From Candidatus Pelagibacter sp. HTCC7211 (GTDB taxonomy: Bacteria; Pseudomonadota; Alphaproteobacteria; Pelagibacterales; Pelagibacteraceae): a stretch of 32,000 nt of DNA. The stretch's first letter is position 1; every line of letters begins with the position of its first letter. This document shows positions 11,234 to 32,000 of this stretch, in pieces. The stretch is taken from the NCBI RefSeq assembly GCF_000155895.1, contig NZ_DS995298.1:1410001-1442000 (forward strand), written 5' to 3'. The translations under genes were made by a program, and so were the position numbers. The notes below the pieces were generated by a model, which saw nothing but the letters and a program-made list of their open reading frames with translations, did no database searches and was not told the origin of the DNA.

Positions 11234-11242
11234 TTTAGAATA

Positions 11243-11360
11243 TGCCTGGCAATGTCCTACTCTTCCGTGTCTTAAGACAAAGTACCATTGGCGCTGAAAG
11301 GCTTGACTTCCGAGTTCGGAATGGGATCGGGTATTACACTTTCGCAATAATTACCAGGCA
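11243..11360 (-). rRNA. rrf: 5S ribosomal RNA
   Basis: The minus-strand sequence is TGCCTGGTAATTATTGCGAAAGTGTAATACCCGATCCCATTCCGAACTCGGAAGTCAAGCCTTTCAGCGCCAATGGTACTTTGTCTTAAGACACGGAAGAGTAGGACATTGCCAGGCA (118 nt). The termini pair over 9 bp (helix I). It contains the universal CCGAACTCGGAAGT.AAGC, GCGCCAATGGTACT and AGAGTAGGACA blocks. It is a locally GC-rich island in AT-rich DNA. End coordinates are accurate to 1-2 nt. Confidence 0.95.
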
Positions 11361-11469
11361 CTGTCTATTACTAAAATTAGTTAACAATGTAAAGATTTAT
11401 TTATGTTTATTAAAATATTTAAAAAACCCAAAATATGACAATTGAAGTTTAGTTATAGGCTCTATTAAT

Positions 11470-12528
11470 TTAGTTTTTTCTATTTAATTTATTTTGTCCT
11501 AATATATTTGAGAAAATAACATAAATTACTCCAAATATAATACCAATGAAAATCGAAAAGTATAAATACTTCTTTTCATCTTTTAATGAATTTACGGATA
11601 TTAAAAATAAATTATAATCGACTAAATTAATTTTTTCAGTTTTTAATATTTCTATTCTTTCTTTTATCTTTTTAATATCCTTATACTCTCGATTTTCTAT
11701 TAGCGAAATTTCTTTGTCTATTGCTTTATATCCTTGCAAATAGTATCCAATGTTGTTGGTGGTAACATTTACTGCGATTTTATCTTGTGGCAAATTAACA
11801 GTATCTACTTGATTTTCTGCTATATTTAGTTCTTTTGCAATTGCACTTTGTTCTGTTAAAAATAGTATTCTACTTTCATTTTCGCTAATTTTTATCTCCT
11901 TTTTAATTTTTAAAAAATAATCTAAATCTTTAAAAACTGATTTATGTAAATTAATCTTTGTGAGATTTAATGTTTCGCTTAGAATTTTTAGACCTTCCTC
12001 GCTATCTCCCCATATAAGTTTTATGACATATCCAAGATCTTTATTAGTTTCATCTAATCTTTGAAGAGAAAGTAATTTTGAATATTTCAGCATTTGTCTT
12101 TGTCTTTCAATTTCAGTTTGAAGAGTATTTTCATCTATATAAGAATTACTTTCTAAAACGTTTATAAATTCCTCAAAATCTAAAAATTCTTTAACAAATC
12201 GATCTATCATTGTTATTTCGTTTACTTGGAGTTCTTGGTTAATTTCCAATTGCTGGTTTGTAAAATGTTTTTGAGTTGAATTATTTAACAAACTTGAAAT
12301 TAACATTTGATTTATAGGTATAAATTTAACAAAATTTGAATTCTTACTTGGTTGAATAGTAATTGAAAGCTTAAATGAATTTGGTATTTTACTAGTATAA
12401 CCTACGCCAATTAATGTGAAGATAATTGTTATTAAAAAAATTTTTACTTTTCCATTCCAAATTATTTGCAAAATTTCAATAAATTCTATGTCATTATTGT
12501 ATCTGTATAAAGGAATTTTTTTTTTCAT
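11470..12528 (-). CDS. wzz: Polysaccharide co-polymerase / O-antigen chain-length determinant (Wzz-like, PCP-1 topology)
   Basis: 352 aa. The N-terminal Wzz pattern is IEFIEILQIIWNGKVKIFLITIIFTLIGVGY (TM1). A long Glu/Lys/Leu-rich, probably coiled-coil periplasmic region follows, then the C-terminal TM2 YLYFSIFIGIIFGVIYVIF. Confidence 0.75.
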   Translation of the reverse strand: MKKKIPLYRYNNDIEFIEILQIIWNGKVKIFLITIIFTLIGVGYTSKIPNSFKLSITIQPSKNSNFVKFIPINQMLISSLLNNSTQKHFTNQQLEINQELQVNEITMIDRFVKEFLDFEEFINVLESNSYIDENTLQTEIERQRQMLKYSKLLSLQRLDETNKDLGYVIKLIWGDSEEGLKILSETLNLTKINLHKSVFKDLDYFLKIKKEIKISENESRILFLTEQSAIAKELNIAENQVDTVNLPQDKIAVNVTTNNIGYYLQGYKAIDKEISLIENREYKDIKKIKERIEILKTEKINLVDYNLFLISVNSLKDEKKYLYFSIFIGIIFGVIYVIFSNILGQNKLNRKN

Positions 12529-12637
12529 TGAATTTAATCGTAAATTTTTAACATAATTTATAATTATGTTTTATTAAACTAATCAATCAAAATTACAAAT
12601 AAATATTTCTTATAAAATTTCACTTGATTACAAGACA

Positions 12638-13906
12638 TTAATTAACACTTTTTTTTTTAAAAATATTTTTTTTTGAATAAATAGATTGAAGATAAAAACC
12701 TACAGGTAGACTGTAAACTATTATTAGCCAATTATTGAAAAAATTGCCATTTGGAGAAAATGGCCATGTAGTTATTAATAATCCAGCTAACAAACATACT
12801 TGATAATCTGTAAAATATCTTTTTTGTTTAAATAAAATAGTCTTAATCTGTCTTAAAGCAGAATATAGAACATAACATATTGCGCTTAACAAAAAAATAA
12901 ATCCTACAATTCCAGTTTCTGCTAATAATTGTACATAAAAATTATGAGGATGAGTACTACATGGTTGTTGTCCTGTTGAATATTTGGAGTCGGAACATTT
13001 TATTCTAAACATTTTGGGGCCATGACCAAAAATAGGTTTGTCTTGAAACATTTTATATGCTGTTTTTAAATGACTATCATGAACAGGAGTAAAAATTGTT
13101 TTTTGGTTTGAGCTTTTGATTAAACCCATGTTTTTAGCAGGCGACAAAAACATCCTATCAGTTAAATTAGATGAATTTAGACTTAAAATAACGACAAAAA
13201 ACATTGCCACAATAAATGTGACTAATCTAAATTTTTGATATTTTTTGATCAAAAGAATTATAAATACAGTTGATAAATTTAAAAAAAAGAATGCAGTCCT
13301 TTCGCCAGACATAAATATTAAAACATCAACTAAAATAAATAAAATTCCTATAAAATAAATTTCAAATTTTTGTTTTGGTTTGATTAAAAATAAAGCAAAT
13401 AATAAAGGAAACAATCTTGATAAATAAGAGCCCATGACAAGTTCATCACCAAATAAGGATGAAATCCTATTTCCTATTGTTTCCAATCCTAATAAATTTT
13501 TTCCCGTTAAATATTGAAAATAACCATCAATTACCAAAACTGAAAAACATAAAATTAAAGCATAATAAAAATAAATTAAAATACTTTTATCTTTATCTAT
13601 CAAATACCAAATCAAACAGCTGAATATTCCTATTCTAAAATAAAATAAAGAACTTTTTACACTTAAAGATATATCTTCAGCCTCTAAGCTTAATAAAGTA
13701 GATATAATACAAAATGATAAAAATATAATAAATGGTATGTTATTAAAATAATAAAAATTATTATTTTGCAATACAAAATATAAAAAAAATAAAGATGAAA
13801 CACTTACTATTAAATCTGGAAAAAAAGGCCCCGAAATTAAAAAGGGAATTACAGACACAACTATTAAATTAATTAAAATTTTATTCGAGTATTTAAATTT
13901 ATTCAT
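12638..13906 (-). CDS. Wzy_C-domain membrane protein (O-antigen ligase WaaL family; an O-oligosaccharyltransferase or polymerase role is also possible)
   Basis: 422 aa with about 10-12 predicted TM segments. The periplasmic loop carries SGERTAFFF, FGHGPKMF and the Wzy_C hallmark HPHNFYVQLLAETGIVGF. Confidence 0.75.
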   Translation of the reverse strand: MNKFKYSNKILINLIVVSVIPFLISGPFFPDLIVSVSSLFFLYFVLQNNNFYYFNNIPFIIFLSFCIISTLLSLEAEDISLSVKSSLFYFRIGIFSCLIWYLIDKDKSILIYFYYALILCFSVLVIDGYFQYLTGKNLLGLETIGNRISSLFGDELVMGSYLSRLFPLLFALFLIKPKQKFEIYFIGILFILVDVLIFMSGERTAFFFLNLSTVFIILLIKKYQKFRLVTFIVAMFFVVILSLNSSNLTDRMFLSPAKNMGLIKSSNQKTIFTPVHDSHLKTAYKMFQDKPIFGHGPKMFRIKCSDSKYSTGQQPCSTHPHNFYVQLLAETGIVGFIFLLSAICYVLYSALRQIKTILFKQKRYFTDYQVCLLAGLLITTWPFSPNGNFFNNWLIIVYSLPVGFYLQSIYSKKNIFKKKSVN

Positions 13907-13937
13907 AAAAAATTTAGAATTAAATTTATAAAAAGTA

Positions 13938-15917
13938 TTAAGTCTTGATCCTTACTACTTTATTTTCTTGATCCTTAACTTTAGTAGATTTTTTTAAATC
14001 ATTTTTATTTTTTAGACTCTCTTCATAATAAAGATCAACAATTTTTGAATTTGATTTATAACTAGGGACCAATCTATGCAACATATCTTTAATTTCAGAT
14101 GCCCTATTATCTTCAACTAAAACTGATAAATTATCCAATTCTATTTTAAGTTGATCAAATGGAATGAAGGGGTCTTGAGCTTTTTGAATTTTATCATGAT
14201 AAGTTTTTTGAGGATTATCTCCTAACAATAGTTCTTCATATAATTTTTCTCCTGGTCTAAGTCCTATAATCTTGACTTCTATGTCTCCCCCTAAATTATT
14301 ATTATCTTTGACAGATAAACCTGAAAGTTTAATCATTTTATTAATTAAATCTCTAATTTTTACACTTTTTCCCATATCAAGAACAAATACCTCACAAGCT
14401 TCAGACATCGCACCTGCTTGTATAACCAATTGTGATGCCTCAATTATCGTCATAAAATATCTTGTGACCTCTGGATGAGTTAAAGTTACTGGGCCTCCCT
14501 GTCTAATTTGTTTTTTAAATTTTGGAATTACAGAACCTGATGATTGTAAAACATTGCCAAAACGAACAATAGCAAATTTTGTGTTTTTATTTTCTTTATT
14601 ATAAAGAGCTTGTATACAAATTTCAGCAAGTCGTTTACTCGCACCCATAACATTCGTTGATCTTACTGCTTTATCACTAGAGATCAGAACAAAATTTGAA
14701 ACATTATTTTGAATCGCAGTTTGTGCAATTGAAAAAGTTCCAAAAACATTATTTTTAATGCTTTCACAAATATTTTCTTCAACTAAAGGTACATGTTTAT
14801 AAGCTGCAGCATGATAAACCGTATCTACTTTAAAAGTTCTAAAAACTTCGTTCAACCTTGATATGCTTTGAACATTAAGCAGTAAAGGAACATAATTTAA
14901 ATTTTGATTTAAATTTTTTAGCTCTTCATAAATATTATAAAGGGCAAACTCATTTAACTCTATGAGTAACAATTTTTTTGGTTTTAATCTTGTTATTTGA
15001 CGACATAATTCAGAACCAATTGAGCCTCCTGCACCTGTTACTACCACAACTTTAGAGCTAACATTTTTAGATAACAATTCAATATCTGGTTTAACTTGTT
15101 CTCTGTTTAAAAGATCTTCAATAATTAAATCTTTAATATCAGAAACTGATATTTTTCCATCTACAATATCCTGAATACTTGGCAATGTTTTAACCGATAT
15201 TTTATGTTTATTTAAATCATTAATAATTTCATTTCTCTTTTTTCGACTAATTGATGGAAGTGCAAGTAAAACTAGATCAATATTTTTTGAATTTATTAAT
15301 TTACTTATATTAATTGGGTCAAAAACTGTTTGACCCAATACTGTTTGGTTGTGAAATTGTTTATTGTCATCTAAAAAACCTACCGCTTTCATTTCAGGAT
15401 TATTTTCTAAACTAAGTAACAACTGTCTACCGGCATTACCAGCTCCATAAATTAATAATTTTTTTTTATTTTCTATATTTTTTATAGATGTGTTAATTGG
15501 AAACAAAAATTTAATTGCTATTCTTGAACTTGTAATTCCTAGAAATAATAATAATGGTTGAATAATTCCAATAGATCTAGGAATGCCTTGTATTCCAAAA
15601 ATACTTATAATTGAAAAATAAATTATTCCATATACTAATACGGCAACTGATACAGTAAAAATTATAGATGTTCCTCCAAAACGTAGTATTGTTCTATATA
15701 AACCATGAAGCCAAAAAATTGGTATAGCTATAATTGTGGAAATTAATACTGCAAGAATAGTTATATCATTAATTTTTATAAATTGTTCTAATCTCAAATA
15801 AAAAGCTAGCCAAGTACATGAAATACATAAACCTAAATCAATAATAATGGTAATAATCCTCTTAGCAAAACGTGGTAAATTAATTATATTTTTTGAAGCT
15901 TCTGTTAAAAATGACAT
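13938..15917 (-). CDS. Membrane-anchored nucleotide-sugar 4,6-dehydratase (CapD/WbpM/PglF family, Polysacc_synt_2)
   Basis: 659 aa. Has four N-terminal TM helices, a first Rossmann-like motif LLIYGAGNAGRQL, a second VVVTGAGGSIGSEL, and the catalytic region SSDKAV.STNVMGASKRLAE. Confidence 0.88.
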   Translation of the reverse strand: MSFLTEASKNIINLPRFAKRIITIIIDLGLCISCTWLAFYLRLEQFIKINDITILAVLISTIIAIPIFWLHGLYRTILRFGGTSIIFTVSVAVLVYGIIYFSIISIFGIQGIPRSIGIIQPLLLFLGITSSRIAIKFLFPINTSIKNIENKKKLLIYGAGNAGRQLLLSLENNPEMKAVGFLDDNKQFHNQTVLGQTVFDPINISKLINSKNIDLVLLALPSISRKKRNEIINDLNKHKISVKTLPSIQDIVDGKISVSDIKDLIIEDLLNREQVKPDIELLSKNVSSKVVVVTGAGGSIGSELCRQITRLKPKKLLLIELNEFALYNIYEELKNLNQNLNYVPLLLNVQSISRLNEVFRTFKVDTVYHAAAYKHVPLVEENICESIKNNVFGTFSIAQTAIQNNVSNFVLISSDKAVRSTNVMGASKRLAEICIQALYNKENKNTKFAIVRFGNVLQSSGSVIPKFKKQIRQGGPVTLTHPEVTRYFMTIIEASQLVIQAGAMSEACEVFVLDMGKSVKIRDLINKMIKLSGLSVKDNNNLGGDIEVKIIGLRPGEKLYEELLLGDNPQKTYHDKIQKAQDPFIPFDQLKIELDNLSVLVEDNRASEIKDMLHRLVPSYKSNSKIVDLYYEESLKNKNDLKKSTKVKDQENKVVRIKT

Positions 15918-15921
15918 AGCG

Positions 15922-16449
15922 TTATAATTTTAAGATTGTTCTCAATATATAGTAAAAATAATAAAATAAATTCATATTCTTTATCATTTTAGAGTCTGTT
16001 TTTGCTAACTGTGTAGGCGTTTGCATATTGACACCTGATATTTGAGCAAGACCAGTAATTCCTGGTTTTACTTTAAATACTCCTCTTTTTTTTCGTTCAG
16101 CAATTAATTTTTCTTGATTTAATAAGCAGGGTCTGGGCCCAACTAAACTCATATCACCTAAAAGCACATTAAATAATTGTGGAATTTCATCTAATTTAGT
16201 TCTCCTTAGAAAATAACCAAAGGAGGTAAATTTTATATCCCTTATTAAATGTGTCCCAACTGATTTGGTTTTTTTTGGCATTGTTCTAAATTTTATTAAT
16301 GTAAAAGATTTAAGATTTCGACCAACTCGTTTCTGTAAAAATATTGGAGAACCATTATCAAATGCACCTATCATCCATAGCAAAATTAAAAAAGGTGATA
16401 AAAAAATTATCCCTGTTAATGAAAAAAAAATATCAAAAATACGGATCAT
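15922..16449 (-). CDS. Small monotopic phosphoglycosyltransferase (Bac_transf family, PglC/WbaP-C-terminal type); initiating enzyme
   Basis: 175 aa. The N-terminal re-entrant helix is IFFSLTGIIFLSPFLILLW. Motifs SPIFLQKRVG, KFRTM, the catalytic dyad context KLDEIPQLFNVLLGDMSLVGPRP, and KPGITG. The ATG overlaps the stop of the upstream gene (ATGA at 16446-16449). Confidence 0.9.
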   Translation of the reverse strand: MIRIFDIFFSLTGIIFLSPFLILLWMIGAFDNGSPIFLQKRVGRNLKSFTLIKFRTMPKKTKSVGTHLIRDIKFTSFGYFLRRTKLDEIPQLFNVLLGDMSLVGPRPCLLNQEKLIAERKKRGVFKVKPGITGLAQISGVNMQTPTQLAKTDSKMIKNMNLFYYFYYILRTILKL

Positions 16450-17426
16450 TTACCCTGAATCATTCTTCTTATACCTTCTACAACACTTAAAGGAGGTGTC
16501 CAATTTAATTCCTTTTGAGTATACCTGCTATCTATTTTTAAAGATCCAACTAATCGATTAATTTCTGCTTGTTTACCAAAAATTAAGCCTAGCAGTTTAA
16601 GTAAAAAAAAAGGAATAGGAAAAAATCGAGCTCTATGTCCCATTGAATTTGCAATATATCTTATAAAATCAGGTGTAGATAAATCTTCTCCATCTGAAAC
16701 TAAAAAAGTTTTTCCAGCAGCGTTAGGATGATCAACACATGTAATTAATAGATCAACTAAATTATCTATTCCAATCATAGAGCGTTGATTTTTAACCATT
16801 CTCAATGGAAGGGGGATGCGGAATGCTACAAGTTTTAACAAATTTGCTAAGTTTCCTTTTGCGCCATAACCATACACTAATGGCAAGCGAAGTATTGAAA
16901 CTTCTAATCCTGTTCTGGAAGAAATTTCCCACAAAGCATTTTCAGCTTCAAATTTAGATACTGCATAAGAGTCTTGTGGATTTGGTAAGTCATTATAACT
17001 AAATATTTTCTTTCTCTGATGATAAGAAATATCTTTATTATCAATATTATAAGTACACTCTCCATTAACCTTTACTGAACTTAAAAATATAAATCTTTTA
17101 ACTTCTGCTTTAGACGCTTGTTCAGCAAGTTGTTTGGTGCCTTCGACATTTACTGATTGAAAAATTTTAGATGTATCATTTTTCTTTTCATTCATTATAT
17201 GCGCTCTTCCAGCACAATGAATAATGCAATCAACATCAACTAAAATATCTTTCCAGTTTGTTTTAAGACTAATATCTTCTACTAATACATATTCAATATC
17301 AGTATTTTTTGAAAATGAATTAATAGTTCTTACTGTGCCACGAATATGTTTGCCTGATTTTGACAATTTCTCGCTTAGAGATTTTCCAATAAATCCCGAT
17401 GTTCCTGTAATTAAAATTTTTTTCAC
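16446..17426 (-). CDS. NAD-dependent nucleotide-sugar epimerase/4-reductase (extended SDR, WbpK/WreQ-like context)
   Basis: 326 aa. Motifs MKKILITGTSGFIGKSL and DSYAVSKFEAE (YxxxK). It sits directly upstream of the phosphoglycosyltransferase and the CapD-like dehydratase. Confidence 0.8.
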   Translation of the reverse strand: MKKILITGTSGFIGKSLSEKLSKSGKHIRGTVRTINSFSKNTDIEYVLVEDISLKTNWKDILVDVDCIIHCAGRAHIMNEKKNDTSKIFQSVNVEGTKQLAEQASKAEVKRFIFLSSVKVNGECTYNIDNKDISYHQRKKIFSYNDLPNPQDSYAVSKFEAENALWEISSRTGLEVSILRLPLVYGYGAKGNLANLLKLVAFRIPLPLRMVKNQRSMIGIDNLVDLLITCVDHPNAAGKTFLVSDGEDLSTPDFIRYIANSMGHRARFFPIPFFLLKLLGLIFGKQAEINRLVGSLKIDSRYTQKELNWTPPLSVVEGIRRMIQGK

Positions 17427-17431
17427 TAAAA

Positions 17432-18187
17432 TTACCTTTTTAAAAATTGATTAAATCGAGAAATTAACTTATTAATAAAAAAACTTATTGGGTTTACTGA
17501 TAAGCCATTTTTTTTAAATGAATTAAAAACTTCCATATTTTGAGTCCAAATATTTCGTATACTTTTATTTGTGGTACCGCCGATTCGCATCTTAATCCAA
17601 ACTTTAGGTACGTATCTAGACTTAATTTTATGAACTTCAAGAAATCTCATCATAAGCTCGACATCTGAAGCTATATTATAATTGATATCAAAATTACCCA
17701 AATCTTCATATACGGAACGACGAACAAAAAAAGTTGGGTGCGGCGGGCACCATCCTTTTGAAAATAAACCTTCTTTAAATTCACAGGATTTTACATAACG
17801 AATAATCTTTGAGGTATCAGATTTTCCAACATATATTAAATCTGCATAACAAGCATCTATTGAAGAGTCTTTCTTAAATTCTTTCACAACTTCAGAAATT
17901 ACATTATTGTTTATATAAAAATCATCAGAATTTAAAAAACCAATAATATCACCTGATGCAATACCAATTCCCTTATTCATAGCATGATAAATGCCTCCGT
18001 CTTTCTCGCTAATTAATGATGCAAATTGATGACGTTTTGACTCTAAAATTGATAAAGTTCCATCAGTACTAGCTCCATCAATTATGATATGTTCAATATC
18101 AGAATATTTTTGTAATTTAACTGAAGCTAAACAATCATTAATAACGGAAAAACTATTAAATGCTACTGTAATGATAGATACTTTCAT
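17432..18187 (-). CDS. Glycosyltransferase family 2
   Basis: 251 aa. Motifs VSIITVAFNS, IIIDGASTDGT and the DxD motif NSDDFY. Confidence 0.85.
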   Translation of the reverse strand: MKVSIITVAFNSFSVINDCLASVKLQKYSDIEHIIIDGASTDGTLSILESKRHQFASLISEKDGGIYHAMNKGIGIASGDIIGFLNSDDFYINNNVISEVVKEFKKDSSIDACYADLIYVGKSDTSKIIRYVKSCEFKEGLFSKGWCPPHPTFFVRRSVYEDLGNFDINYNIASDVELMMRFLEVHKIKSRYVPKVWIKMRIGGTTNKSIRNIWTQNMEVFNSFKKNGLSVNPISFFINKLISRFNQFLKR

Positions 18188-19639
18188 TTAAAACTGAAAA
18201 TATATAAATTGATTTATTGATCTGAAGAAAATCACAACTGTTGAAAAAATAATTGTTATTAAAACAATATCAAGCGAAATAGTTATTAATTTTTTTGAAT
18301 TTAATTTCGGAATAATTTTTTCTTTAAATAAATAAACTAAATAAAAATTTAGTAAGATTAGAAAAGTAATTAAATAAACATTTTCTCGCATACCAAGCCA
18401 CAAATATGCAAATGGGTTAATAACTTTTAGCCACATCTCTATACTATCAGATAAAGAATTAGCTCGAAACGGAATCCATGATAACATTATTAGTGGAATG
18501 GTTATTATAATTCCTAAAAATGATCTTAACCTATGTGAAAGATTTCGTTTAGATGGTTCTATAAATCTATAAATACTTATTAAAATTGCATGATAAATTC
18601 CCCATATTACAAATGTCCAATTTGCACCGTGCCAAAGCCCCATAATTCCCCATGTTATAAACAAAGATTTGTTGCTTCCTGAACTTTTTAAACTTTTTTT
18701 AAATCCACCTACTGATCGATTTTCAACTTTTTTTTTATTTAAAGGTAAATAAAGATAATCACGTATCCAACTTGATAAAGAGATATGCCATCTTTGCCAA
18801 AATTCCTTTGGAGAGCTTGAAATGTAAGGAAAATTGAAATTATTAGGAAATACTATTCCCATCATTCTTGCGCTACCTATTGCTATATAAGAATATCCGC
18901 TAAAATCAAAGTAAATCTGGAAACCAAACAAAAATGCTAAGGTCCAAACATCTATAGCTGACAAATCAGCAACGTTTATTATAAAGCCCCTGTCAACAAG
19001 AATTGAAATATTATCTGCTAGAACAACCTTTAAAAATAAACCAAATAATATAAATCGCAATCCAATCATAAGGTGATCAAGTGAAAATGATGATCGATTA
19101 ACAAATTGAGGAATTACTTCTTTTGCACGCAATATTGGACCAGCAACTAATTGAGGAAAAAAGGTTACATAACATGCAAATAGAATAAAATCTTTTTCTG
19201 GTTTAATGAAGCCCCTGTAAACATCTACTGTGTAACTTATTGTTTGAAATGTATAAAAACTAATACCCAAAGGAAGAATAATCTTTAGAGCAATAGGATC
19301 TATTTCAGCACCTAAAAGATTAGCAAAACCAAGTGCATTGTTCGCAAAGAAAATTAAATATTTAAAATAAACTAAAAGTCCAAGATTGGTTGTTAAACTA
19401 ATCAGTAATAAGGAAAACCTATGTTTTTTTTGACATTTATATATTTTTTGAGCAACCCACCAATCAACAATTACCGAAATTAATAAGATTGGAATAAATG
19501 AAATTTTCCAAAATCCATAAAATACTAAACTTGAAATAAAAATAAGAATTAGACGAGCCTTGTAAGGTAGCGACCAATACAAAGCGACAACTAAAAATAG
19601 CAATAATATATAAGTTAATGAATTAAAAATCATAACCAA
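18188..19639 (-). CDS. MBOAT-family membrane O-acyltransferase (AlgI/DltB/PatA-like)
   Basis: 483 aa and polytopic. Motifs GISFYTFQTISYTVDVYRG, FWQRWHISLSSWIRDYLYLPL (catalytic His) and GLWHGANWTFVIWGIYHA. Confidence 0.9.
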   Translation of the reverse strand: MVMIFNSLTYILLLFLVVALYWSLPYKARLILIFISSLVFYGFWKISFIPILLISVIVDWWVAQKIYKCQKKHRFSLLLISLTTNLGLLVYFKYLIFFANNALGFANLLGAEIDPIALKIILPLGISFYTFQTISYTVDVYRGFIKPEKDFILFACYVTFFPQLVAGPILRAKEVIPQFVNRSSFSLDHLMIGLRFILFGLFLKVVLADNISILVDRGFIINVADLSAIDVWTLAFLFGFQIYFDFSGYSYIAIGSARMMGIVFPNNFNFPYISSSPKEFWQRWHISLSSWIRDYLYLPLNKKKVENRSVGGFKKSLKSSGSNKSLFITWGIMGLWHGANWTFVIWGIYHAILISIYRFIEPSKRNLSHRLRSFLGIIITIPLIMLSWIPFRANSLSDSIEMWLKVINPFAYLWLGMRENVYLITFLILLNFYLVYLFKEKIIPKLNSKKLITISLDIVLITIIFSTVVIFFRSINQFIYFQF

Positions 19640-19643
19640 ACAA

Positions 19644-20795: not shown

Positions 20796-20809
20796 ATTTT
20801 GATACTCTT

Positions 20810-22567: not shown

Positions 22568-22589
22568 AAGTTTTCTACCCTCTTAATTT

Positions 22590-23735: not shown

Positions 23736-24955
23736 CTGATAAGATCCTTAATTGTGTTTTTGTTTTTTAAATTACTTACGTTAACAGGTCTTTTGTAATT
23801 ATAATGATTTAAACCACACAAGATAATTGCATACCAACAAAAATAATATCTATACCAAGGGATAGCCAGAAGATAAATCATACTTATTAATAAGAGAGTA
23901 CGATTTGTATTTGAAAAAGATATGGACATAAATAGCACTAAGCAAGAAATTAAAATTCCAAATTCAAAGAAAAGATATAAAAAACCTGAAGATAATCCTC
24001 TACCTAGTTCATCATCAGAATATTTGATAAAATTATTTATTCCATGACCAAATAAAAGTTTGGAAATAGAGGCATCCTTTAAAACTTCAATAGCAAAGAA
24101 ATTTCGTTCCATTCGATCTAGAAATGAGGTTTCAGAAAAATGTAAATTGAATGACTCAAAATTTACATTAAACAAATAAGAAACAATTAAAATTAATAAT
24201 GATGACATTAATACAGTAAGTACAACATTAATTTGTTTAAATTTTAAATCTAGAATAAGAATAATTATTAAAACCAAATAAAATGTAAGTGAAAAAGTCA
24301 ACAAACCAGCTAACAAACTTGTAAGATAATATTTTATTGGAAATAAATTTCTATTCTTTGAGATAATCAATAAATTAAATGCAAAAAACATACCTGCATA
24401 TTGTGGTTCAGTAAAAAAACTACTAACTCTCTCTAATCCAATAAAAGCAAATTGTTTAAAGACTGTAAAACCAAAAATACTAATTTTATAATCGTAAGCT
24501 GGGTTAAATAAAGACTCAGATGAATTGAAACTTACTAAAGAAGTATTAAAATTTGTGAACTGATTAACAAAAAAAGAAATAATTGCTAAAATTGAAATTA
24601 TGAATGAAAAACGTATCCATAATCGAAGAAAAGTTTCATTACTAAAATTATTTGTTCTTAAAACTCTAAATATTGAATAAGCAACAAAAATTACCGCATA
24701 TGCAGATAGAACATTATTTAAGCTACTCCTCTGAGAGAAAATCTCCAGAATTAAAATAATCATCAAAAGAATAAAAAAATTAATTTCTAAAAATTTAAAT
24801 TTTGTATTCTCAAGATAAAGTAATAATATAATTACTACACCAATCAACCCTCTTATTTCTTTTCCAAAAAATGGAAGTTGAGAGAATACAAATGGTGGGC
24901 TAATTAATGCTAAAGCAATTAGTAAAATAGAAATAATTTTTATTCGAGTATGCAT
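23732..24955 (-). CDS. Polytopic membrane protein, O-antigen polymerase-like (Wzy-type)
   Basis: 407 aa with about 10-11 TM segments. Has a loop with FGHGINNF followed by GFLYLFFEFGILIS, a degenerate version of the Wzy_C motif. It is embedded between glycosyltransferase genes. Confidence 0.6.
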   Translation of the reverse strand: MHTRIKIISILLIALALISPPFVFSQLPFFGKEIRGLIGVVIILLLYLENTKFKFLEINFFILLMIILILEIFSQRSSLNNVLSAYAVIFVAYSIFRVLRTNNFSNETFLRLWIRFSFIISILAIISFFVNQFTNFNTSLVSFNSSESLFNPAYDYKISIFGFTVFKQFAFIGLERVSSFFTEPQYAGMFFAFNLLIISKNRNLFPIKYYLTSLLAGLLTFSLTFYLVLIIILILDLKFKQINVVLTVLMSSLLILIVSYLFNVNFESFNLHFSETSFLDRMERNFFAIEVLKDASISKLLFGHGINNFIKYSDDELGRGLSSGFLYLFFEFGILISCLVLFMSISFSNTNRTLLLISMIYLLAIPWYRYYFCWYAIILCGLNHYNYKRPVNVSNLKNKNTIKDLIS

Positions 24956-24997
24956 TTATTCAACAAAGATTTATTATATATAATTTTTTAAATTGAA

Positions 24998-25888
24998 TCA
25001 TCTATTGGAACTAATCATTATATGAGTAATCATAATTAATGATTTCAATCTCAATTTAAAAGAACTATATCTTAATACAAATACTAAATCTTTTTTTGCT
25101 TGTTTATAGTTAAAATTTAAATAATTAAATCGACCTGATATATACTTAATATTTGCTTCTAATTTTTTTTTTTGCTTATTATTTAAAATACACAAAAAGT
25201 CTTGTGTTGCTTTTTGAGTTGGCATAGACATATTTCTTCGAGATACTCCTTCGTGATGTATATAATAATATCCAAGTTTTTTGGGAATGTATAAAAATTG
25301 GTCGGTAAATTTTGAAATTTTTAACCAAGTGTTATAATCCTCAGCTGCAATTAAATCTTTATTTTCCTCAATTAAACCAATTTTTGTAAGTACTTTTTTT
25401 CTAACAATCACAGAGGAATTACTGATCACATTACCATTTACTAATAAATCTATTAATATTGGTTTTTTTAATTGACGAGATTTATTTATTTTGCCTTTAA
25501 AAAATATTTGTCTATCAGACGTAACTTCCAAATCATGATAAATTAAATCTATTTGATTATTAATATTCTCTATGCAGGTTTTAAGTTTATCACTTGTCCA
25601 AGAATCATCAGAGTCCAAAAAAGCTACCCAATCCCCTTTTGCTGATTTAATACCTATATTCCTAGATTTAGCAATTACTCCATAATTTTGGATTTTTAAG
25701 TACTTGATTCTATGATCATTGAATCTAGCAATTACCTTACCTGTATCATCTGTTGAATGATTATCGATTACGATTGCTTCCCAATTTGTGTATGTTTGAT
25801 GAAGAACTGATTGTAATGCCTTGTTGAGATAATCCGCATGATTAAAAGTTGGAATTATAATGGATACAAGTGGTTTAAATTTATACAT
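24998..25888 (-). CDS. Glycosyltransferase family 2
   Basis: 296 aa. Motifs VSIIIPTFNHADYL, VIDNHSTDDT and the DxD motif LDSDDSW. Confidence 0.85.
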   Translation of the reverse strand: MYKFKPLVSIIIPTFNHADYLNKALQSVLHQTYTNWEAIVIDNHSTDDTGKVIARFNDHRIKYLKIQNYGVIAKSRNIGIKSAKGDWVAFLDSDDSWTSDKLKTCIENINNQIDLIYHDLEVTSDRQIFFKGKINKSRQLKKPILIDLLVNGNVISNSSVIVRKKVLTKIGLIEENKDLIAAEDYNTWLKISKFTDQFLYIPKKLGYYYIHHEGVSRRNMSMPTQKATQDFLCILNNKQKKKLEANIKYISGRFNYLNFNYKQAKKDLVFVLRYSSFKLRLKSLIMITHIMISSNR

Positions 25889-25919
25889 TAATTTAATAGT
25901 ATTAGTATTTTATAGAAAT

Positions 25920-26831
25920 TTATTTCATAATAAGTTTATATTTTTTAATTATTTTATTTATATTTTTCAAAATTTGATCAATTTCAAAATAAATTTTTTT
26001 ATTATCTGGAGAAAATTTTAAATTTTGATTGCTATGTATTAAAATTTTCTTTTTTTGTCTAGATTTTTTTATTATTGTGTCAATATTTAAATTAAATATA
26101 AATTTACATCTTTTCTGAATTAATTTTGCTGTATCTCTAAGATTTAAATTTTTATATGAAATATTTATAATTGAATTCTTGAAAAATTTTTTGGTTATTA
26201 TAAAGTTTAGTACTTGCATAAATATTTTTGATGGAACAAATGTCCTCTGTACAGAACCATTATTAATTATAATCTTATTTTTTTTTAAAGCCGAAACACA
26301 TAAACTATGAATTATGTTATTATTAATTTCTCTTAAATTTTCATACTTTTTAAATCCAAAAACATTACCAATCCTTAAAATTGTAAACATATTTTTATGA
26401 TTTAAAAATTTTTTAATAATAATTCTTTCAGATTCATAGTGCGCTTTTGAATAAGAATTTTTAAGATTAATTTTAGAATTTAAAGAAATATTATTTTTTC
26501 CGTAATCTTTATAAACTTGCATAGAAGATATATAAATTAATTTGATATTATTTATTAAACATAGATCACAGATATTTGAAGTGATTTGATTTTTTTTTTT
26601 TATTAAATTGATATTTTTTAATAATTGATTTTGATTAGGCCCTATAAGATGAACAATATATTCAAATTTTTTGAATATTTTTAAATTTTTTTTAGTAAAT
26701 TTATAATTAAAAAAATTTTTAGCATTCTTTTTTCTAGAAAAAAAAAAATATTTATTTTTTTTAAAACTATTTTGATTTTTTATTAACGATGCTAGATAAC
26801 CAGTGCCACCAAAGACAGCTATTTTTGCCAT
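25920..26831 (-). CDS. Extended-SDR family protein, probable NDP-4-ketohexose reductase (RfbJ/RfbS-like size and position)
   Basis: 303 aa. Motifs IAVFGGTGYLAS (Rossmann) and ILRIGNVFG. The catalytic region reads NSYSKAHYESE, so YxxxK is not in the canonical register. The gene is extremely AT-rich (15% GC hand-counted at 26001-26100). The ATG overlaps the rfbF stop (TAATG). Confidence 0.6.
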   Translation of the reverse strand: MAKIAVFGGTGYLASLIKNQNSFKKNKYFFFSRKKNAKNFFNYKFTKKNLKIFKKFEYIVHLIGPNQNQLLKNINLIKKKNQITSNICDLCLINNIKLIYISSMQVYKDYGKNNISLNSKINLKNSYSKAHYESERIIIKKFLNHKNMFTILRIGNVFGFKKYENLREINNNIIHSLCVSALKKNKIIINNGSVQRTFVPSKIFMQVLNFIITKKFFKNSIINISYKNLNLRDTAKLIQKRCKFIFNLNIDTIIKKSRQKKKILIHSNQNLKFSPDNKKIYFEIDQILKNINKIIKKYKLIMK

Positions 26832-27526
26832 TATTTAAGCCATGGAGATTTTTTATTTCTTATCATCTTATCTAATACTTTTTTATCCCTTAAAGTATCC
26901 ATACAAAACCAAAAACCTTTATGTTTATAAGCAGCTAAATTTTTTGAAATTACTGCTTTTGTTAAAGGAGATCTTTCAAGCATTTCATTTTTTTTTCCTA
27001 TAAATTTTAAAAATTCAGGTTCGACCACAAAAAAACCTCCATTAATCCAACCTTTTTGTAATTGAGGTTTTTCCTCAAATTTTGTCACTACTCGACCAGA
27101 TATAGTCAACTCACCAAACCTTGCAGGTGGATGAACAGCGGTTAAAGTAATTTTTTTTTTACTTTTTTTATGAAAATATAATAATTTTTTTAAATTAACA
27201 TTTGATAAACCATCACCATAAGTTAGCATAAATGTTCTTTTTAACTTATCCTCAAGTTTTTTTAGTCTAGTTCCTGTTAAAGTTTCAACGCCTGTGTTTA
27301 TAACTTCTATTTTTGCAGATATTTTTTTGTTTCTAAAATAATTATTTATGATTGAATGTTTATATCCGCTAGCTATTATAAAATCATTAAAACCAAATTT
27401 CATATAATATTTAATTATATGATCTAAAATAGGTTTAGATCCAACTGGCACCATTGGTTTTGGTATTGATCTTGTAAATTCTGCTAATCTTGTTCCTTTT
27501 CCACCAGCTAATATTACAACTTTCAT
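26831..27526 (-). CDS. rfbF: Glucose-1-phosphate cytidylyltransferase
   Basis: 231 aa counted from the ATG at 27526: MKVVILAGGKGTRLAEFTRSIPKPMVPVGSKPILDHII, which parallels Salmonella RfbF MKAVILAGGLGTRL...KPKPMVEIGGKPIL. This ATG forms an ATGA overlap with the upstream stop. The track's longer start at 27544 would add 6 non-conserved residues. Confidence 0.88.
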   Translation of the reverse strand: MKVVILAGGKGTRLAEFTRSIPKPMVPVGSKPILDHIIKYYMKFGFNDFIIASGYKHSIINNYFRNKKISAKIEVINTGVETLTGTRLKKLEDKLKRTFMLTYGDGLSNVNLKKLLYFHKKSKKKITLTAVHPPARFGELTISGRVVTKFEEKPQLQKGWINGGFFVVEPEFLKFIGKKNEMLERSPLTKAVISKNLAAYKHKGFWFCMDTLRDKKVLDKMIRNKKSPWLK

Positions 27527-27972
27527 CCTAGTTTTATATTCCAATTATAATTAAAATATGGATCATCAAAAGGTTTCCTGGACATTTCTTCAGCTTCATG
27601 AGGTATATCTGAGCAATTAGCAATTATTGAAAACTTATTTTCCACTGATTTAAAACCATTCCAAACTCTTGCGGGCACAGTTACTAAACTGTAATTTTCT
27701 GTTGTCAGAAAAATTTCTTGTAATTCACCTTTGGTAGAACTTTCAGGTCTATCATCAAACAATACTAATTTTATTTTACCTATAACGCAGACATAATTAA
27801 CGGTCATTCTTTTATGTAAATGCCAAGCTTTTACTGTATTTGGATGAGAATATGAAAAATATATTTCACCAAACTTAGTAAAATTTGGATCATCATTTCT
27901 CATCATGTGCATGATTTTTCCTCTTTCATCAATAATTTGTTTTTTAGGGATAATTTTGACACCTTCAATCAT
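27523..27972 (-). CDS. Small RmlC-like cupin, probable NDP-4-keto-6-deoxyhexose 3- and/or 5-epimerase
   Basis: 149 aa. The pattern DERGKIMHM...GEIYFSYSHPNTVKAWHLHKRMTVNYVCVIGKIKLVLFDDRPESSTKG follows the RmlC pattern DERG.F.E...RG.H.H......V.G....V..D.R..S.T.G. The gene overlaps rfbG by 8 nt. Confidence 0.7.
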   Translation of the reverse strand: MIEGVKIIPKKQIIDERGKIMHMMRNDDPNFTKFGEIYFSYSHPNTVKAWHLHKRMTVNYVCVIGKIKLVLFDDRPESSTKGELQEIFLTTENYSLVTVPARVWNGFKSVENKFSIIANCSDIPHEAEEMSRKPFDDPYFNYNWNIKLG

Positions 27973-29020
27973 AGAAAAAACTTGTAAATTGTTTTTTGCT
28001 TAACTTATCAATATTCTTTTTATCATATATATAACATTGGTACCAATGCGCTGTCATTTTAAGAGTTTTGATAAAAGAGAGTTTTGGCTTCCACTTGAGA
28101 TATTTTTTTGATTTATTTATTTTTAAACTTAATAATCCAGTTTCTTCTAAATTCATATCTTTTTTTACAAAAATTCTCTTTTTTACTCCCATAATTTCTA
28201 CTAATCTCAAAACTACTTCTTTTACTGTTACGTTGCCTTTGGCTGGCCCAAAATTCCAAGACCCATTGTAATTACTTCTTCCATATATCTTCTTACTTAA
28301 AATCAAATAACCATTTAAGAGATCAAAAATATGTTGCCATGGTCGAGTAGCCTTAGGACTTCTTAAAGTAAATTTTTGATTATGAATAATAGATTTAATG
28401 AAATCAGGAATAATTCTATCTTTTGACCAATCACCGCCCCCTATAACATTCCCAGCTCTCACAGATACAAGACCTAATTTTTTTTTTTTCTGAAAGAAAG
28501 ATTCTTTATATGAGTAAAATATATTTTCAGCAGCAGCTTTTGAAGCACTATAAGGATCTTTGCCTCCCAATTCATCATTTTCTGAATAACCAGATCTTTT
28601 TTCATAATTTTTATAACATTTGTCTGATGTAATTATTACTGCTGATTTTATACTTTTAGTATTTTTTATAGCTTCTAAAATATTTAGAGTTCCAATTATA
28701 TTTGTAGTAAATGTAAATTTTGAATCTAAATAAGAATCTTTTACTAAAGGTTGTGCTGCTAAATGAAAAATAATATCAGGTTTAAATTTTTTAATTTTTT
28801 TAGATAAATTTTTTTCATCTCTAACATCACCAAAAATATTTTCGATTTTATTTTCTAATTTTAACAAATAAAAATTATCAAATTTATATTTTGGTTTTAA
28901 GCTATACCCTGCTATTTTTGCTCCGCTTAAATATAAAATATATGTCAACCATGAACCTTTGAAACCCGTATGACCTGTAATGAAAATTTTTTTTCCTCTA
29001 AAAAATTTTAAATCTAGCAT
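27965..29020 (-). CDS. rfbG: CDP-glucose 4,6-dehydratase
   Basis: 351 aa. FRGKKIFITGHTGFKGSWLTYILYLSGAKIAGYSLKP is the RfbG/DdhB N-terminal signature. Catalytic motif DPYSASKAAAE. Confidence 0.9.
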   Translation of the reverse strand: MLDLKFFRGKKIFITGHTGFKGSWLTYILYLSGAKIAGYSLKPKYKFDNFYLLKLENKIENIFGDVRDEKNLSKKIKKFKPDIIFHLAAQPLVKDSYLDSKFTFTTNIIGTLNILEAIKNTKSIKSAVIITSDKCYKNYEKRSGYSENDELGGKDPYSASKAAAENIFYSYKESFFQKKKKLGLVSVRAGNVIGGGDWSKDRIIPDFIKSIIHNQKFTLRSPKATRPWQHIFDLLNGYLILSKKIYGRSNYNGSWNFGPAKGNVTVKEVVLRLVEIMGVKKRIFVKKDMNLEETGLLSLKINKSKKYLKWKPKLSFIKTLKMTAHWYQCYIYDKKNIDKLSKKQFTSFFYD

Positions 29021-30298
29021 TTAGTTAATAGAATATGACATGCTGTTAAAATTGGATCTTAAATATTTTTTATAATTATTTTTATCAACAACATGAAATA
29101 TAGGTAGATGAAATATCAGTTTACCTCCTTTTTTAATATAGTTCATTTCCTGTTTAATAACTTCTGATCTAAAAGACCAAATCAAAACTAAAAGATATTT
29201 AGGGTTTCGTTTCCTCATTATTTCCTTTGAAACTATTTTAATATTAGTACCTGGAGTATACCTATTATACTTAAATGGATTAGTGTCACATATTAATGGA
29301 ATATCTTTATTTGTAATTCCCAAATGATTTAAGACGATATTTCCTTTAGTTGAAGCGCCATATCCCATTATATCTTTTGCAGAAATGTTTTTTAAAAATT
29401 CTAAAACTGTTTTCTTTACATTATCCACTCTGTCTTGAAAAAGGTTAAAGATGTTTTTTGAAATTTTAGACTCTTCTTCAAAAATTTTTTGCACAATTGG
29501 CTTTGGTTTTATTTTAGAGACTCTTTTTGCGCAAACAACTTCTATACTTCCACCATTAATTTCATTAAAACTTAGGTCAATAACTTTCATTTGATTATTT
29601 TCTAAAATTTTATCAAATGTGGTTAGTGAGTAATAAGTAACATGCTCATGGCATATTTGATCATAAGTTAGATTTTTGAATAAAAGTGGTAAATATGAAA
29701 ACTCAACTATCCAAATACCATCTTTATTTAAAAGTTCACTAATATCTTTACAAAAACTATTGGGATCTTCAATGTCATAAAACATTGCAAATGAGGTGAT
29801 AATATTAAATTTTTTTCTTATTTGATCTTTTGTCATATTTCCTAATAATTTTTTTTTTGAAAAATAATCTGTAATAACTGAGATATTTTTTTTATAATTA
29901 TCTAAAAATTTCTTTGATGATGGGTCCATACCAAAAAGCTCTACCCTTCTCAAACTAGACATAAAATTTAAAAAAGTTCCATCGTTTGACCCTATATCTA
30001 AGATTTGACCTTCAAGTAATTTTTTATAACTTTTTTTTATAGAATAAAATTTTTTTCTCATATGATTTACCATCAAAGGACTCAGAGAAGTATTATAACC
30101 ATAAGTTAATCCATACATATCATCTAAAGGTGGTAATGAACTAAATTGAACCAATCCACACTTGGGGCAAGTATATAAGTCTAAAGAATAATTTTTAAGC
30201 TTGTATTTAGGTTTATCATGAAAAACGCTACTGATTGGTTGTTTGCCAATTTTAAATACTTTTTTTAAATTTGGATTTTTACAATTTTTACACTTCAT
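29021..30298 (-). CDS. NDP-hexose C-methyltransferase (zinc-ribbon + SAM + C-terminal sugar-binding domain; TylCIII/TcaB9-type architecture)
   Basis: 425 aa. The N-terminal C3-x2-C6 ... C44-x2-C47 forms a zinc ribbon (MKCKNCKN...YTCPKCGLVQ). SAM motif ILDIGSNDGTFL. The long C-terminal domain has GYGASTKGN. The gene abuts rfbG with zero spacer. Confidence 0.75.
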   Translation of the reverse strand: MKCKNCKNPNLKKVFKIGKQPISSVFHDKPKYKLKNYSLDLYTCPKCGLVQFSSLPPLDDMYGLTYGYNTSLSPLMVNHMRKKFYSIKKSYKKLLEGQILDIGSNDGTFLNFMSSLRRVELFGMDPSSKKFLDNYKKNISVITDYFSKKKLLGNMTKDQIRKKFNIITSFAMFYDIEDPNSFCKDISELLNKDGIWIVEFSYLPLLFKNLTYDQICHEHVTYYSLTTFDKILENNQMKVIDLSFNEINGGSIEVVCAKRVSKIKPKPIVQKIFEEESKISKNIFNLFQDRVDNVKKTVLEFLKNISAKDIMGYGASTKGNIVLNHLGITNKDIPLICDTNPFKYNRYTPGTNIKIVSKEIMRKRNPKYLLVLIWSFRSEVIKQEMNYIKKGGKLIFHLPIFHVVDKNNYKKYLRSNFNSMSYSIN

Positions 30299-30306
30299 TA
30301 CTGTGC

Positions 30307-31452
30307 TTATAATTTAAATTCTCTTAGTTTGCTATTAATAAAGCTTATCTCTTTATTTTTTAAATGAGGATGCAAAGGCAAAGTAACTAATTCTTTCCAA
30401 ACTTTAAGAGCGATTGGTATTTTAGATTTAAACTTTTTATACAATGGATGCAAAGGTAATGGCATCAAATGAACACTAGTTGAGATATTATGTTTTTTTA
30501 GATAAGAAATTAATTTGTCTCTATTTTTTGATCTTATTGAAAACATCCAGTATGATGATTTATTTAGATCATAGGGAAATGTTGGAATTAAATTTTTACA
30601 TTTTTTTAAATTTTTTAAATATTTTTTTAAAAACTTTATTCTTGAATTATTAAGAAATGATAATTTTTTTAATTGTACTCTACCAATAGAAGCTTCAAGA
30701 TCATTCATATTGTATTTAAAACCAAGTTGATTTATTTCGTAATACCAATGAAGATTTTGTTTGTTTTTTTTTTTATTATTTGAAAATCTTTGCTTATGTC
30801 TTAATAAAGGGTCTTTATCCCATCCATGAAAACTTAATGATTTTAATTTTTTTGCAATATGAGTATTATTTGTAACGATCATTCCACCATCACCCGTTGT
30901 CATCATTTTTTTTTCCTCAAAACTAAAGCAACCAAAGTGACCCCAAGTACCAATTTTTTTTCCTTTATAGTAGCCTCCACAAGTTTCGGCACAATCTTCT
31001 ATTACAATTAATTTTTTTTGATTAGCAAATTTCATAATCCTATCCATTTCACAGGGATGTCCCCCAAAATGAACTGGCATGATAGCTACACAATCTTTAG
31101 TAAATTTTTTTTTCAAATCATCTAGGCTCATATTTAAATCATTTTTGTTTATGTCCACAAAAACTGGGATTAAACCACAATATAAAACTACTGCTGCAGT
31201 TGCGCTAAAAGTTATCGCTGGAACTAAAACTTTTTTTCCTTTTTTAAAATTGTTGCATAAAAGAGCAAGGTGCAAAGCTGCTGTACATGAATTTACTGCT
31301 ATACTGTGTTTAACCCCAAAATGTTTATTCCATTCTGCTTCAAATTTTTGTACTTCGGTTCCATAACCTATCCATGATCTTTTAAAAACTTTTTTTACTG
31401 AATTTAGTTCTTTAGAACCTAACGAAGGTTGAAACAGCCTAATATTATTCAT
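30307..31452 (-). CDS. DegT/DnrJ/EryC1/StrS-family PLP-dependent sugar aminotransferase
   Basis: 381 aa. Motifs VNSCTAALHLAL, VIEDCAE and FSFEEKKMMTTGDGGM, where the Schiff-base Lys is retained. This argues for an aminotransferase rather than a His-containing dehydrase. Confidence 0.85.
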   Translation of the reverse strand: MNNIRLFQPSLGSKELNSVKKVFKRSWIGYGTEVQKFEAEWNKHFGVKHSIAVNSCTAALHLALLCNNFKKGKKVLVPAITFSATAAVVLYCGLIPVFVDINKNDLNMSLDDLKKKFTKDCVAIMPVHFGGHPCEMDRIMKFANQKKLIVIEDCAETCGGYYKGKKIGTWGHFGCFSFEEKKMMTTGDGGMIVTNNTHIAKKLKSLSFHGWDKDPLLRHKQRFSNNKKKNKQNLHWYYEINQLGFKYNMNDLEASIGRVQLKKLSFLNNSRIKFLKKYLKNLKKCKNLIPTFPYDLNKSSYWMFSIRSKNRDKLISYLKKHNISTSVHLMPLPLHPLYKKFKSKIPIALKVWKELVTLPLHPHLKNKEISFINSKLREFKL

Positions 31453-31455
31453 AAC

Positions 31456-32000
31456 TTATTTTTTCTTAAATATATAAGTTTGTATCTGAGAAAAATCTTT
31501 AGTGTGTTGATTTTCTGACATTGAATTTGCAATTTTTTCTAATGGATGATCATAATTTGTTTTTTCTTTCAAAAATTCTTTTGCATATCGCGCGTATACT
31601 AATCTTGTAATATAATAGAAATCGCTTGCAAATGGAGAAATTTCAACAAGTTTTATACTTTTAAATTCATGATTTCTTAATCTTTCATCATCAAAAAAAA
31701 GATTATGAAACGGAGGAATTATTTCATGAAGATCGTATTTTTTTCTTGCTAAATTAAGTCTTTTTTGGGCATCAGCAGAACTTTCAACTAATACCATTAA
31801 TCCGTCATCTTTTAAAAAACTACCTAAATTTTCTATTGTTTGAATTTGTAGATCTTGCTCTAAAACATTTTGTATAGCCCTTTTTGAAATTATGAAATCA
31901 TATTTTTTTTCAAAAGAGGAGCTAGTAATGTCAGTCATATCCTGTTGAATAAAATTATGTTTATCTGAATTAGATTTTTTAGAACAAACATCAATTAAGT
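31456..32000 (-). CDS. Class I SAM-dependent methyltransferase, 5'-truncated by the window edge
   Basis: The track starts this ORF at Met 31938. Reading the same frame by hand, it stays open to the window end (...LIDVCSKKSNSDKHNFIQQD-MTDI...). The downstream segment YDFIISKRAIQNV...LKDDGLMVLVE resembles post-I/II methyltransferase motifs, so the true start is beyond 32000. Confidence 0.6.
   Translation of the reverse strand, partial: LIDVCSKKSNSDKHNFIQQDMTDITSSSFEKKYDFIISKRAIQNVLEQDLQIQTIENLGSFLKDDGLMVLVESSADAQKRLNLARKKYDLHEIIPPFHNLFFDDERLRNHEFKSIKLVEISPFASDFYYITRLVYARYAKEFLKEKTNYDHPLEKIANSMSENQHTKDFSQIQTYIFKKK

Follow-up and report, generated by a model that had tools for sequence, protein, structure and literature searches.

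Candidatus Pelagibacter sp. HTCC7211 has, in the 32,000-nt stretch analysed here (the window; contig NZ_DS995298.1, positions 1,410,001 to 1,442,000), a minus-strand 5S rRNA gene that forms a sharp border between conserved core genome and a variable island. Positions 11359-32000, on the 5′ side of this gene, are very probably the 20.6 kb nearest to 5S in hypervariable region 2 (HVR2) of this SAR11 strain, a replacement-type flexible genomic island. An island of HVR2 type was inferred in a preliminary description of this DNA, and the inference is upheld both by gene content that is not conserved across 80 related loci and by the published HVR2 of HTCC7211. The HVR2 reading is correct, yet it has already been published for the same genome and brings no new biology; what is added here is a quantitative demonstration that the switch from conserved to variable sequence falls at 5S on this side, together with the recognition of a semi-conserved 5S-proximal start-and-transfer module and of a conserved putative promoter of the detached 5S gene.

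With HIMB59 as the only exception, SAR11 isolates all have an HVR2, which extends from the 16S-tRNA-tRNA-23S cassette to the 5S gene; in HTCC7211 it holds 83 genes (Grote et al. 2012, PMC3448164). It has been described as a lipopolysaccharide (LPS) O-chain island by which the rRNA operon is split in every bona fide member of the Pelagibacterales (Haro-Moreno et al., PMC7318151), and the median distance of 5S to 16S-23S is 46.8 kb in 135 complete genomes (bioRxiv 10.64898/2026.04.03.716430). In HTCC1062, HVR2 has an AT content of 79% and contains genes for the cell surface, and the rRNA genes were proposed as recombination sites (Wilhelm et al. 2007, PMC2217521). HTCC7211 and HTCC7217 differ drastically in HVR2 at 95% average nucleotide identity (ANI), and the region is conserved in SAG-MED25, which has 99.8% ANI to HTCC7211 (López-Pérez et al. 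2020, PMC7542561). In SAR11, the most abundant marine bacterium, diversity of the cell surface between strains resides mainly in HVR2. The region is believed to determine susceptibility to phage and is a main cause of poor SAR11 genome assembly from metagenomes.

The comparison set consisted of 80 loci, one genome per species, found by a scan with the epimerase adjoining 5S. All 80 are from Pelagibacteraceae, the host of the island being a member of the Pelagibacterales. In tblastn searches the core-side proteins of the window were found at 43-80 of these loci with median identities of 67-92%, whereas the island proteins, with the exception of a Wzy_C-family protein, were found at 0-19 loci with median identities of 23-62%, five of them having no match at any locus. 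The Wzy_C protein has homologs at 42 of the 80 loci (median identity 39%) and lies beside 5S in the relatives that were mapped. In all-against-all blastn comparisons, the 9.5 kb on the core side of 5S aligns with a median coverage of 0.87 (69 genomes), compared with 0.00 for an equal length on the island side (47 genomes), while the 5S gene itself is 87-98% identical throughout all 80 loci. Clusters built at 90% identity have 2037 members for pntAA and 6449 for pntB compared with 1-24 for the island proteins, these cluster sizes being only a proxy for the recruitment of marine metagenome reads.

The same site is occupied in relative L021 by a PglF/PglD/PglC/PglE-type set together with EpsG, and in relative L086 by genes for a GDP-mannose dehydratase, an FkbM methyltransferase and GT2 enzymes. 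Exact look-up of the island proteins returned, among named sources, only HTCC7211 and SAG-MED25. When checked for synteny and conservation across the relatives, the 19 genes of the HTCC7211 array were found not to be conserved; the site holds a different gene set in almost every genome and is an island of the replacement type.

The 5S gene was placed at 11244-11358 on the minus strand by Rfam (RF00001, 88.8 bits, full-length), against 11243-11360 in the preliminary description, and the earlier remark that no 16S or 23S gene lies upstream in the window agrees with the Rfam scan, in which both were absent from the 32 kb. Besides 5S, Rfam and ARAGORN gave just a tRNA-Met (6508-6584, plus strand) and a ‘pntA’ motif (10161-10222, minus strand). 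On the strand of the 5S gene and 5′ of it are 19 tightly packed open reading frames (ORFs; 11470-31938), with gaps of -8 to 42 nt when likely start codons are used and of 109-111 nt on either side of wzz. The same-strand glycan array of 19 genes and its spacers (-8 to 42 nt, 109 nt flanking wzz) were thereby reproduced, with the correction that the 19th gene is truncated by the window end. Families belonging to glycan pathways were assigned to 16 of the 19 genes (Pfam, NCBIfam), and contigs from sequencing runs (Logan) match the window at 100% identity.

Compared at sequence level with its relatives, the island is a mosaic in which a semi-conserved 5S-proximal module stands beside unshared sequence. 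The region from 12.66 to 15.9 kb, which holds the Wzy_C gene and a gene for a PglF-like dehydratase, has 71-78% nucleotide identity with six relatives, and in three of the six the alignment reaches 17.4-18.2 kb, taking in a transferase, a reductase and a GT2 gene. The dehydratase gene (13938-15917) is 72-78% identical in L013-L015, L019 and L020, and the GT2 gene (17432-18187) is shared by L049 only (69%). Identity is 69-78% in the shared module, compared with 76-90% in the core of these genomes, and in the DNA alignment the relatives share neither wzz nor any sequence past 18.2 kb. A diverged start-and-transfer module thus stands beside 5S, with strain-specific sugar and decoration genes further in.

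The preliminary description had taken variation in GC as a hint of mosaic cassettes. Its three hand-sampled 100-nt values are exact on recomputation (0.15 at 26001-26100, 0.41 at 21491-21590 and 0.34 at 8401-8500 in pntB), but 100-nt GC scatters to the same extent on either side of 5S (standard deviation 0.065 for the core, 0.061 for the island), and third-position GC (GC3) is uniform at 0.11-0.20 in every gene, island and core alike. GC was rejected as evidence of mosaicism.

Genes of the island within and beyond the window

All island genes of the window are on the minus strand and are taken here from 5S outward. The first (11470-12528) codes for a Wzz-type chain-length determinant of 352 aa with one transmembrane (TM) segment at each end (PF02706, 37.4 bits with a cut-off of 25.5); it is strain-specific, homologs being found at 7 of the 80 loci with a median identity of 26%. 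Next is the Wzy_C-family membrane protein of 422 aa (12638-13906; PF04932, 66.7 bits), an O-antigen ligase or O-oligosaccharyltransferase. It is followed by a membrane-anchored PglF/WbpM-like UDP-HexNAc 4,6-dehydratase of 659 aa (13938-15917; Polysacc_synt_2, 388 bits; PseB/FnlA-like in NCBIfam) and by a small PglC-like phosphoglycosyl transferase of 175 aa, the initiating enzyme (15922-16449; Bac_transf, 172 bits), which corresponds to the C-terminal part of the NCBIfam model EPS_sugtrans. An epimerase/reductase of the short-chain dehydrogenase/reductase (SDR) type (16446-17426; 326 aa; Pfam Epimerase, 97.9 bits) and a GT2 glycosyltransferase (17432-18187; PF00535, 80 bits) complete the module common to some relatives, the latter being its last gene.

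Further in, there is an MBOAT membrane O-acyltransferase resembling DltB/AlgI (18188-19639; PF03062; TIGR04091 at 179 bits, under the cut-off), and after it a protein of 383 aa that has an N-terminal anchor and one predicted TM segment (19644-20795). The latter has no match in Pfam (E up to 10), NCBIfam or a PDB sequence search and no homolog in the 80 loci. An MBOAT pair had been described earlier; the MBOAT member is confirmed by PF03062, and the 383-aa protein, which belongs to no family, is likely its extracytoplasmic partner, a pairing that remains inferred. A NodU/NolO-type O-carbamoyltransferase (20810-22567; Carbam_trans_N 196 bits, Carbam_trans_C 245 bits) and a GT4 glycosyltransferase (22590-23735; Glycos_transf_1, 113 bits) come next. 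The polytopic membrane protein encoded at 23732-24955 (407 aa, at least six hydrophobic segments by TM prediction) gave no significant family or PDB match (Pfam with E up to 10, NCBIfam, PDB sequence search). It had been counted as the second of two Wzy_C-type proteins, a count that needs correction, as the 422-aa protein is the sole demonstrable Wzy_C match.

Another GT2 glycosyltransferase (24998-25888; PF00535, 106.8 bits) precedes the genes of a CDP-sugar cassette. At 25920-26831 lies the gene for an SDR epimerase/reductase (Pfam Epimerase, 56 bits); its GC content of 16.8% is the lowest of any gene in the window (GC1 0.20, GC2 0.19), and it has no homolog in the 80 loci. The cassette continues with an RfbF-like glucose-1-phosphate cytidylyltransferase (26831-27544; NTP_transferase; TIGR02623 at 256 bits with a cut-off of 300), an RmlC/FdtA-like cupin sugar epimerase/isomerase (27523-27972; PF00908, 53 bits), a CDP-glucose 4,6-dehydratase, RfbG (27965-29020; TIGR02622, 433.7 bits with a cut-off of 278), a sugar C-methyltransferase of the TylC3 type (29021-30298; Methyltransf_14, 138.5 bits, and Methyltransf_13) and a DegT/PseC-type sugar aminotransferase (30307-31452; PF01041, 337 bits). 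For this C-methyl/amino-sugar set and for the carbamoyltransferase, the families named in the preliminary description agree with Pfam and NCBIfam. The last feature (31456-32000) is the 3′ part of a gene for a 261-aa S-adenosylmethionine-dependent methyltransferase that starts past the window end, as seen from a contig (L001, gene 9212-9997) with a 100% identical overlap. The 19th ORF (31456-31938) is thus the C-terminal part of this enzyme; no protein record exists for its 160-aa form, which gave nothing usable with Pfam (E up to 10) or NCBIfam.

The island runs on for at least 19 kb past the window, to 40 kb from 5S, and comprises 41 genes over this distance (L001 and L091). The genes past the window include NeuB, a formyltransferase, PIG-L, HisH/HisF-like proteins, an acetyltransferase, TylF-like and other methyltransferases and glycosyltransferases, as well as a CTP transferase, a faint Sulfotransfer_1 match, an APS kinase and a PEP-utilising enzyme. 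The same island is carried by SAG-MED25 (L091, GCA_014653865.1), a Mediterranean single-cell genome. Its sequence is 100% identical to the window over a 1.3-kb overlap and to HTCC7211-derived contigs (L092, L001, L094) across 9-16 kb of shared island extension, while metagenome contig ERR9649192 (L093) differs from it at 2 bases in 11.4 kb. The near-identity of these sequences fits the published report of a ‘persistent clone’ (PMC7542561).

Proposed glycan pathway and rival explanations

Judging from the gene families, the island would direct the assembly, on a polyprenyl-phosphate carrier, of a surface glycan specific to the strain. A UDP-HexNAc would be dehydrated by the PglF/WbpM-like enzyme, reduced, and then moved as a sugar-phosphate to the lipid carrier by the PglC-like transferase. 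A CDP-glucose branch, made up of the cytidylyltransferase, 4,6-dehydratase, C-methyltransferase, aminotransferase, epimerase and reductase, would lead to a C-methylated and/or aminated 6-deoxy sugar. The chain would be extended by the GT2 and GT4 enzymes and decorated with carbamoyl, acyl and methyl groups by the carbamoyltransferase, the MBOAT pair and the methyltransferases. The unit could then be polymerised by the candidate 407-aa protein, with its length set with Wzz, before the Wzy_C-family enzyme passes the glycan to its acceptor. Following the literature, the conserved sequence on one side (5S and core flank) and 23S on the other may serve as homology arms for swaps of whole or partial cassettes, phage pressure being the usual explanation for the upkeep of many variants. 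As regards the traits of a Wzx/Wzy pathway, the initiating phosphoglycosyl transferase is present and the Wzz co-polymerase is above the Pfam cut-off, the polymerase being represented by the 407-aa candidate. The product was earlier called an undescribed surface glycan, which holds solely in the sense that no paper on a SAR11 glycan structure was found in the literature.

Some observations weigh against the reading of the locus as an HVR2 island with such a pathway. No Wzx flippase was recognized among the 41 genes read (19 in the window and 22 further, 40 kb), and the 407-aa protein is put forward as candidate Wzy polymerase without family support. Rfam found no RNA gene in the 20 kb past the window, and 23S was thus not seen within 40 kb of 5S. 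Finally, sequence comparison failed to separate a lipid A-core ligase from a protein O-oligosaccharyltransferase in the case of the Wzy_C protein.

With respect to 23S, extension beyond position 32000 as proposed in the preliminary description met no rRNA gene to 40 kb from 5S, and the 23S boundary stands on the literature (PMC3448164); the 16S-tRNA-tRNA-23S cassette is stated to be the far end of HTCC7211 HVR2 in both PMC3448164 and PMC3815206. The far boundary is therefore more than 40 kb from 5S, and from the 83 genes reported 23S should lie some 40 kb beyond the stretch walked. Conserved segments of E. coli 23S and 16S matched none of the fetched loci of the 80 relatives, which extend up to 10 kb from 5S, in a search that had no positive control.

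Ligases and O-oligosaccharyltransferases share one fold. It is conceivable, though on balance unlikely, that the island glycan goes to proteins and not to lipid A-core, the Wzy_C protein being an O-oligosaccharyltransferase of the PglL/TfpM type and HVR2 a protein-glycosylation island. A profile of 22 SAR11 Wzy_C homologs slightly favours the PDB entry 9rmk_A, named ‘Oligosaccharyltransferase’ (E 1.3e-9, 317 positions), over the WaaL ligase 7tpg_B (E 2.4e-7, 158 positions). The sole NCBIfam match of the window protein is TfpM, at 36.8 bits where the cut-off is 600, and the PglF/PglC-like start module adjoins the Wzy_C gene, with PglD/PglE-like genes there in relatives. However, all scores are far under the family cut-offs, other Wzy_C family members match polymerase or ligase NCBIfam models, weakly and in a mixed fashion, the protein at 422 aa is of WaaL size, a Wzz is present, and the literature regards the island as an LPS O-chain locus (PMC7318151). 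The Wzy_C gene is the one island gene that is retained, in diverged form, in about half of Pelagibacteraceae loci, and there is a small probability that its product is of PglL/TfpM type and not WaaL. If true, HVR2 would serve mainly for protein glycosylation, and each SAR11 strain would coat its surface proteins, instead of lipid A or in addition to it, with a glycan of its own.

A different view of the boundaries is given in the 2026 preprint ‘Pelagibacter, resolved’ (bioRxiv 10.64898/2026.04.03.716430), in which tRNA genes delimit the region and phage integration supplies its content, so that the rRNA genes would be internal landmarks and 5S no real boundary. Conserved Phe/His and Arg tRNAs surround the region in the 135 complete genomes of that study. 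In the loci compared here, a glycan-type epimerase stands on the far side of 5S, and in 11 of the 80 genomes the epimerase is on the island side of 5S or 1-2 kb apart from it. Nevertheless, this model appears improbable for the window, as sequence changes from conserved to unalignable at 5S, with the coverage of 0.87 over the 9.5 kb downstream and 0.00 over the 9.5 kb upstream. The sole tRNA of the window, tRNA-Met, is 4.7 kb inside the conserved core, and no integrase, phage gene or att-like feature is among the 41 island genes annotated.

Recent horizontal acquisition of the island from outside SAR11 is very unlikely. Mean GC is lower in the island (26.1%) than in the core (29.3%), the genome as a whole having 1457 kb and 29.0% GC (PMC3815206), and many island proteins are without a close SAR11 relative in the 80 loci. 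However, the GC3 range common to island and core indicates a SAR11-like codon composition, the named sources of exactly matching proteins are confined to HTCC7211 and SAG-MED25, and relatives of the formyltransferase in marine metagenomes number in the hundreds, at 50-83% identity. An ordinary conserved LPS operon beside an orphan 5S gene, for which the tidy, operon-like same-strand array might speak, is refuted by the differing gene content of the site in almost every genome.

The 5S rRNA gene and its core-side neighbours

A σ70-type promoter-like motif (TTTACA, 17 nt, TAATAG) lies at 11365-11393 on the minus strand and ends 6 nt before the 5′ end of 5S. In an alignment of 79 genomes the positions of this motif are the sole conserved ones in otherwise unrelated DNA upstream of 5S, and across the relatives (L011-L090) the form TTTACA, N17, TAnnAn ends 5-7 nt before the gene. 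The strict pattern is found in 56 of the 79 genomes and in 8 of 553 control windows (1.4%). In six genomes with the order epimerase-5S-rpmJ the motif is in the short spacer directly ahead of 5S and thus moves with the 5S gene. On this sequence evidence we infer that 5S has an independent σ70-type promoter with transcription starting at or beside the mature 5′ end, which would keep 5S expressible and offers an account of how a detached 5S gene is expressed. No paper describing a promoter of the detached 5S was found in the literature; such a promoter is nonetheless an expected feature. A generic promoter scan was uninformative in this AT-rich window (33 sites, 30 expected).

The first gene on the core side is a conserved nucleotide-sugar epimerase (10346-11233, minus strand; Pfam Epimerase), found at 80 of 80 loci with 66-87% identity. 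It begins 10 nt downstream of 5S, and glycan-type genes are thus present on both sides of 5S. The conserved flank continues on the same strand (6593-10349) with rpmJ (10224-10349), a 36-aa ORF (10108-10218), pntAA, pntAB, pntB and tal, with gaps of at most 9 nt. From 5S to tal (6593-11358) every gap in the string is at most 10 nt, and there is no terminator-like site after 5S; the 5S gene may be the first of an mRNA operon, with its RNA excised from the transcript.

The Rfam match to a ‘pntA’ small RNA (sRNA) overlaps the 36-aa ORF (10108-10222, minus strand), which has a COX4_pro_2 match. The ORF is intact at 55 of 59 related loci, with 215, 67 and 519 substitutions at first, second and third codon positions, respectively. 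It has the appearance of a gene for a small membrane protein, either instead of an sRNA or in addition to one.

The order of genes beside 5S is not the same in all relatives. Six of the 80 genomes (L074, L075, L080, L086, L089 and L090) have epimerase-5S-rpmJ in place of 5S-epimerase-rpmJ, with 5S usually separated from rpmJ by 10-20 nt but by about 880 nt in L089, and in five others (L060, L068, L069, L083 and L085) 1-2 kb are inserted between 5S and the epimerase. The 8.6-kb contig of SAG AG-337-P03 (L035) has two inverted copies of 5S-epimerase-rpmJ, which is probably a chimera of single-cell amplification and not a real duplication. These side points (the promoter, the string from 5S to tal, the order of 5S and epimerase and the coding nature of the ‘pntA sRNA’), as well as the question of ligase or oligosaccharyltransferase, leave the overall picture unchanged.

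Comparison with known systems

The island in the window is the HTCC7211 instance of HVR2 listed in Grote et al. (PMC3448164). Like the HVR2 of HTCC1062 (PMC2217521) and of other SAR11 isolates (PMC3448164), it has the 23S-5S site, genes for cell-surface glycans and a low GC content, with little or no counterpart in other strains. It differs from that of HTCC1062 in being larger (83 genes as opposed to about 50) and in having largely different genes.

The locus also resembles Wzx/Wzy clusters for O-antigen or capsule and the pgl loci of Campylobacter and Neisseria, with which it shares a PglF/PglC-type start, nucleotide-sugar cassettes, GT2 and GT4 enzymes, Wzz and a Wzy_C-family transferase. 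Unlike Wzx/Wzy clusters, the 40 kb read has no recognized flippase, and its decorations (carbamoyl, acyl and C-methyl) are an unusual combination.

López-Pérez et al. 2014 reportedly described, in aquatic bacteria, flexible genomic islands of the replacement type that serve the synthesis of O-chain or exopolysaccharide. Such islands are said to occupy one locus in all strains, with the same function and different genes, many variants being maintained and exchanged by homologous recombination in the conserved flanks. The HTCC7211 island resembles them in its shared locus and function, its varying genes and the proposed recombination in its flanks; it differs in that its flanks are rRNA genes and that the rRNA operon is split.

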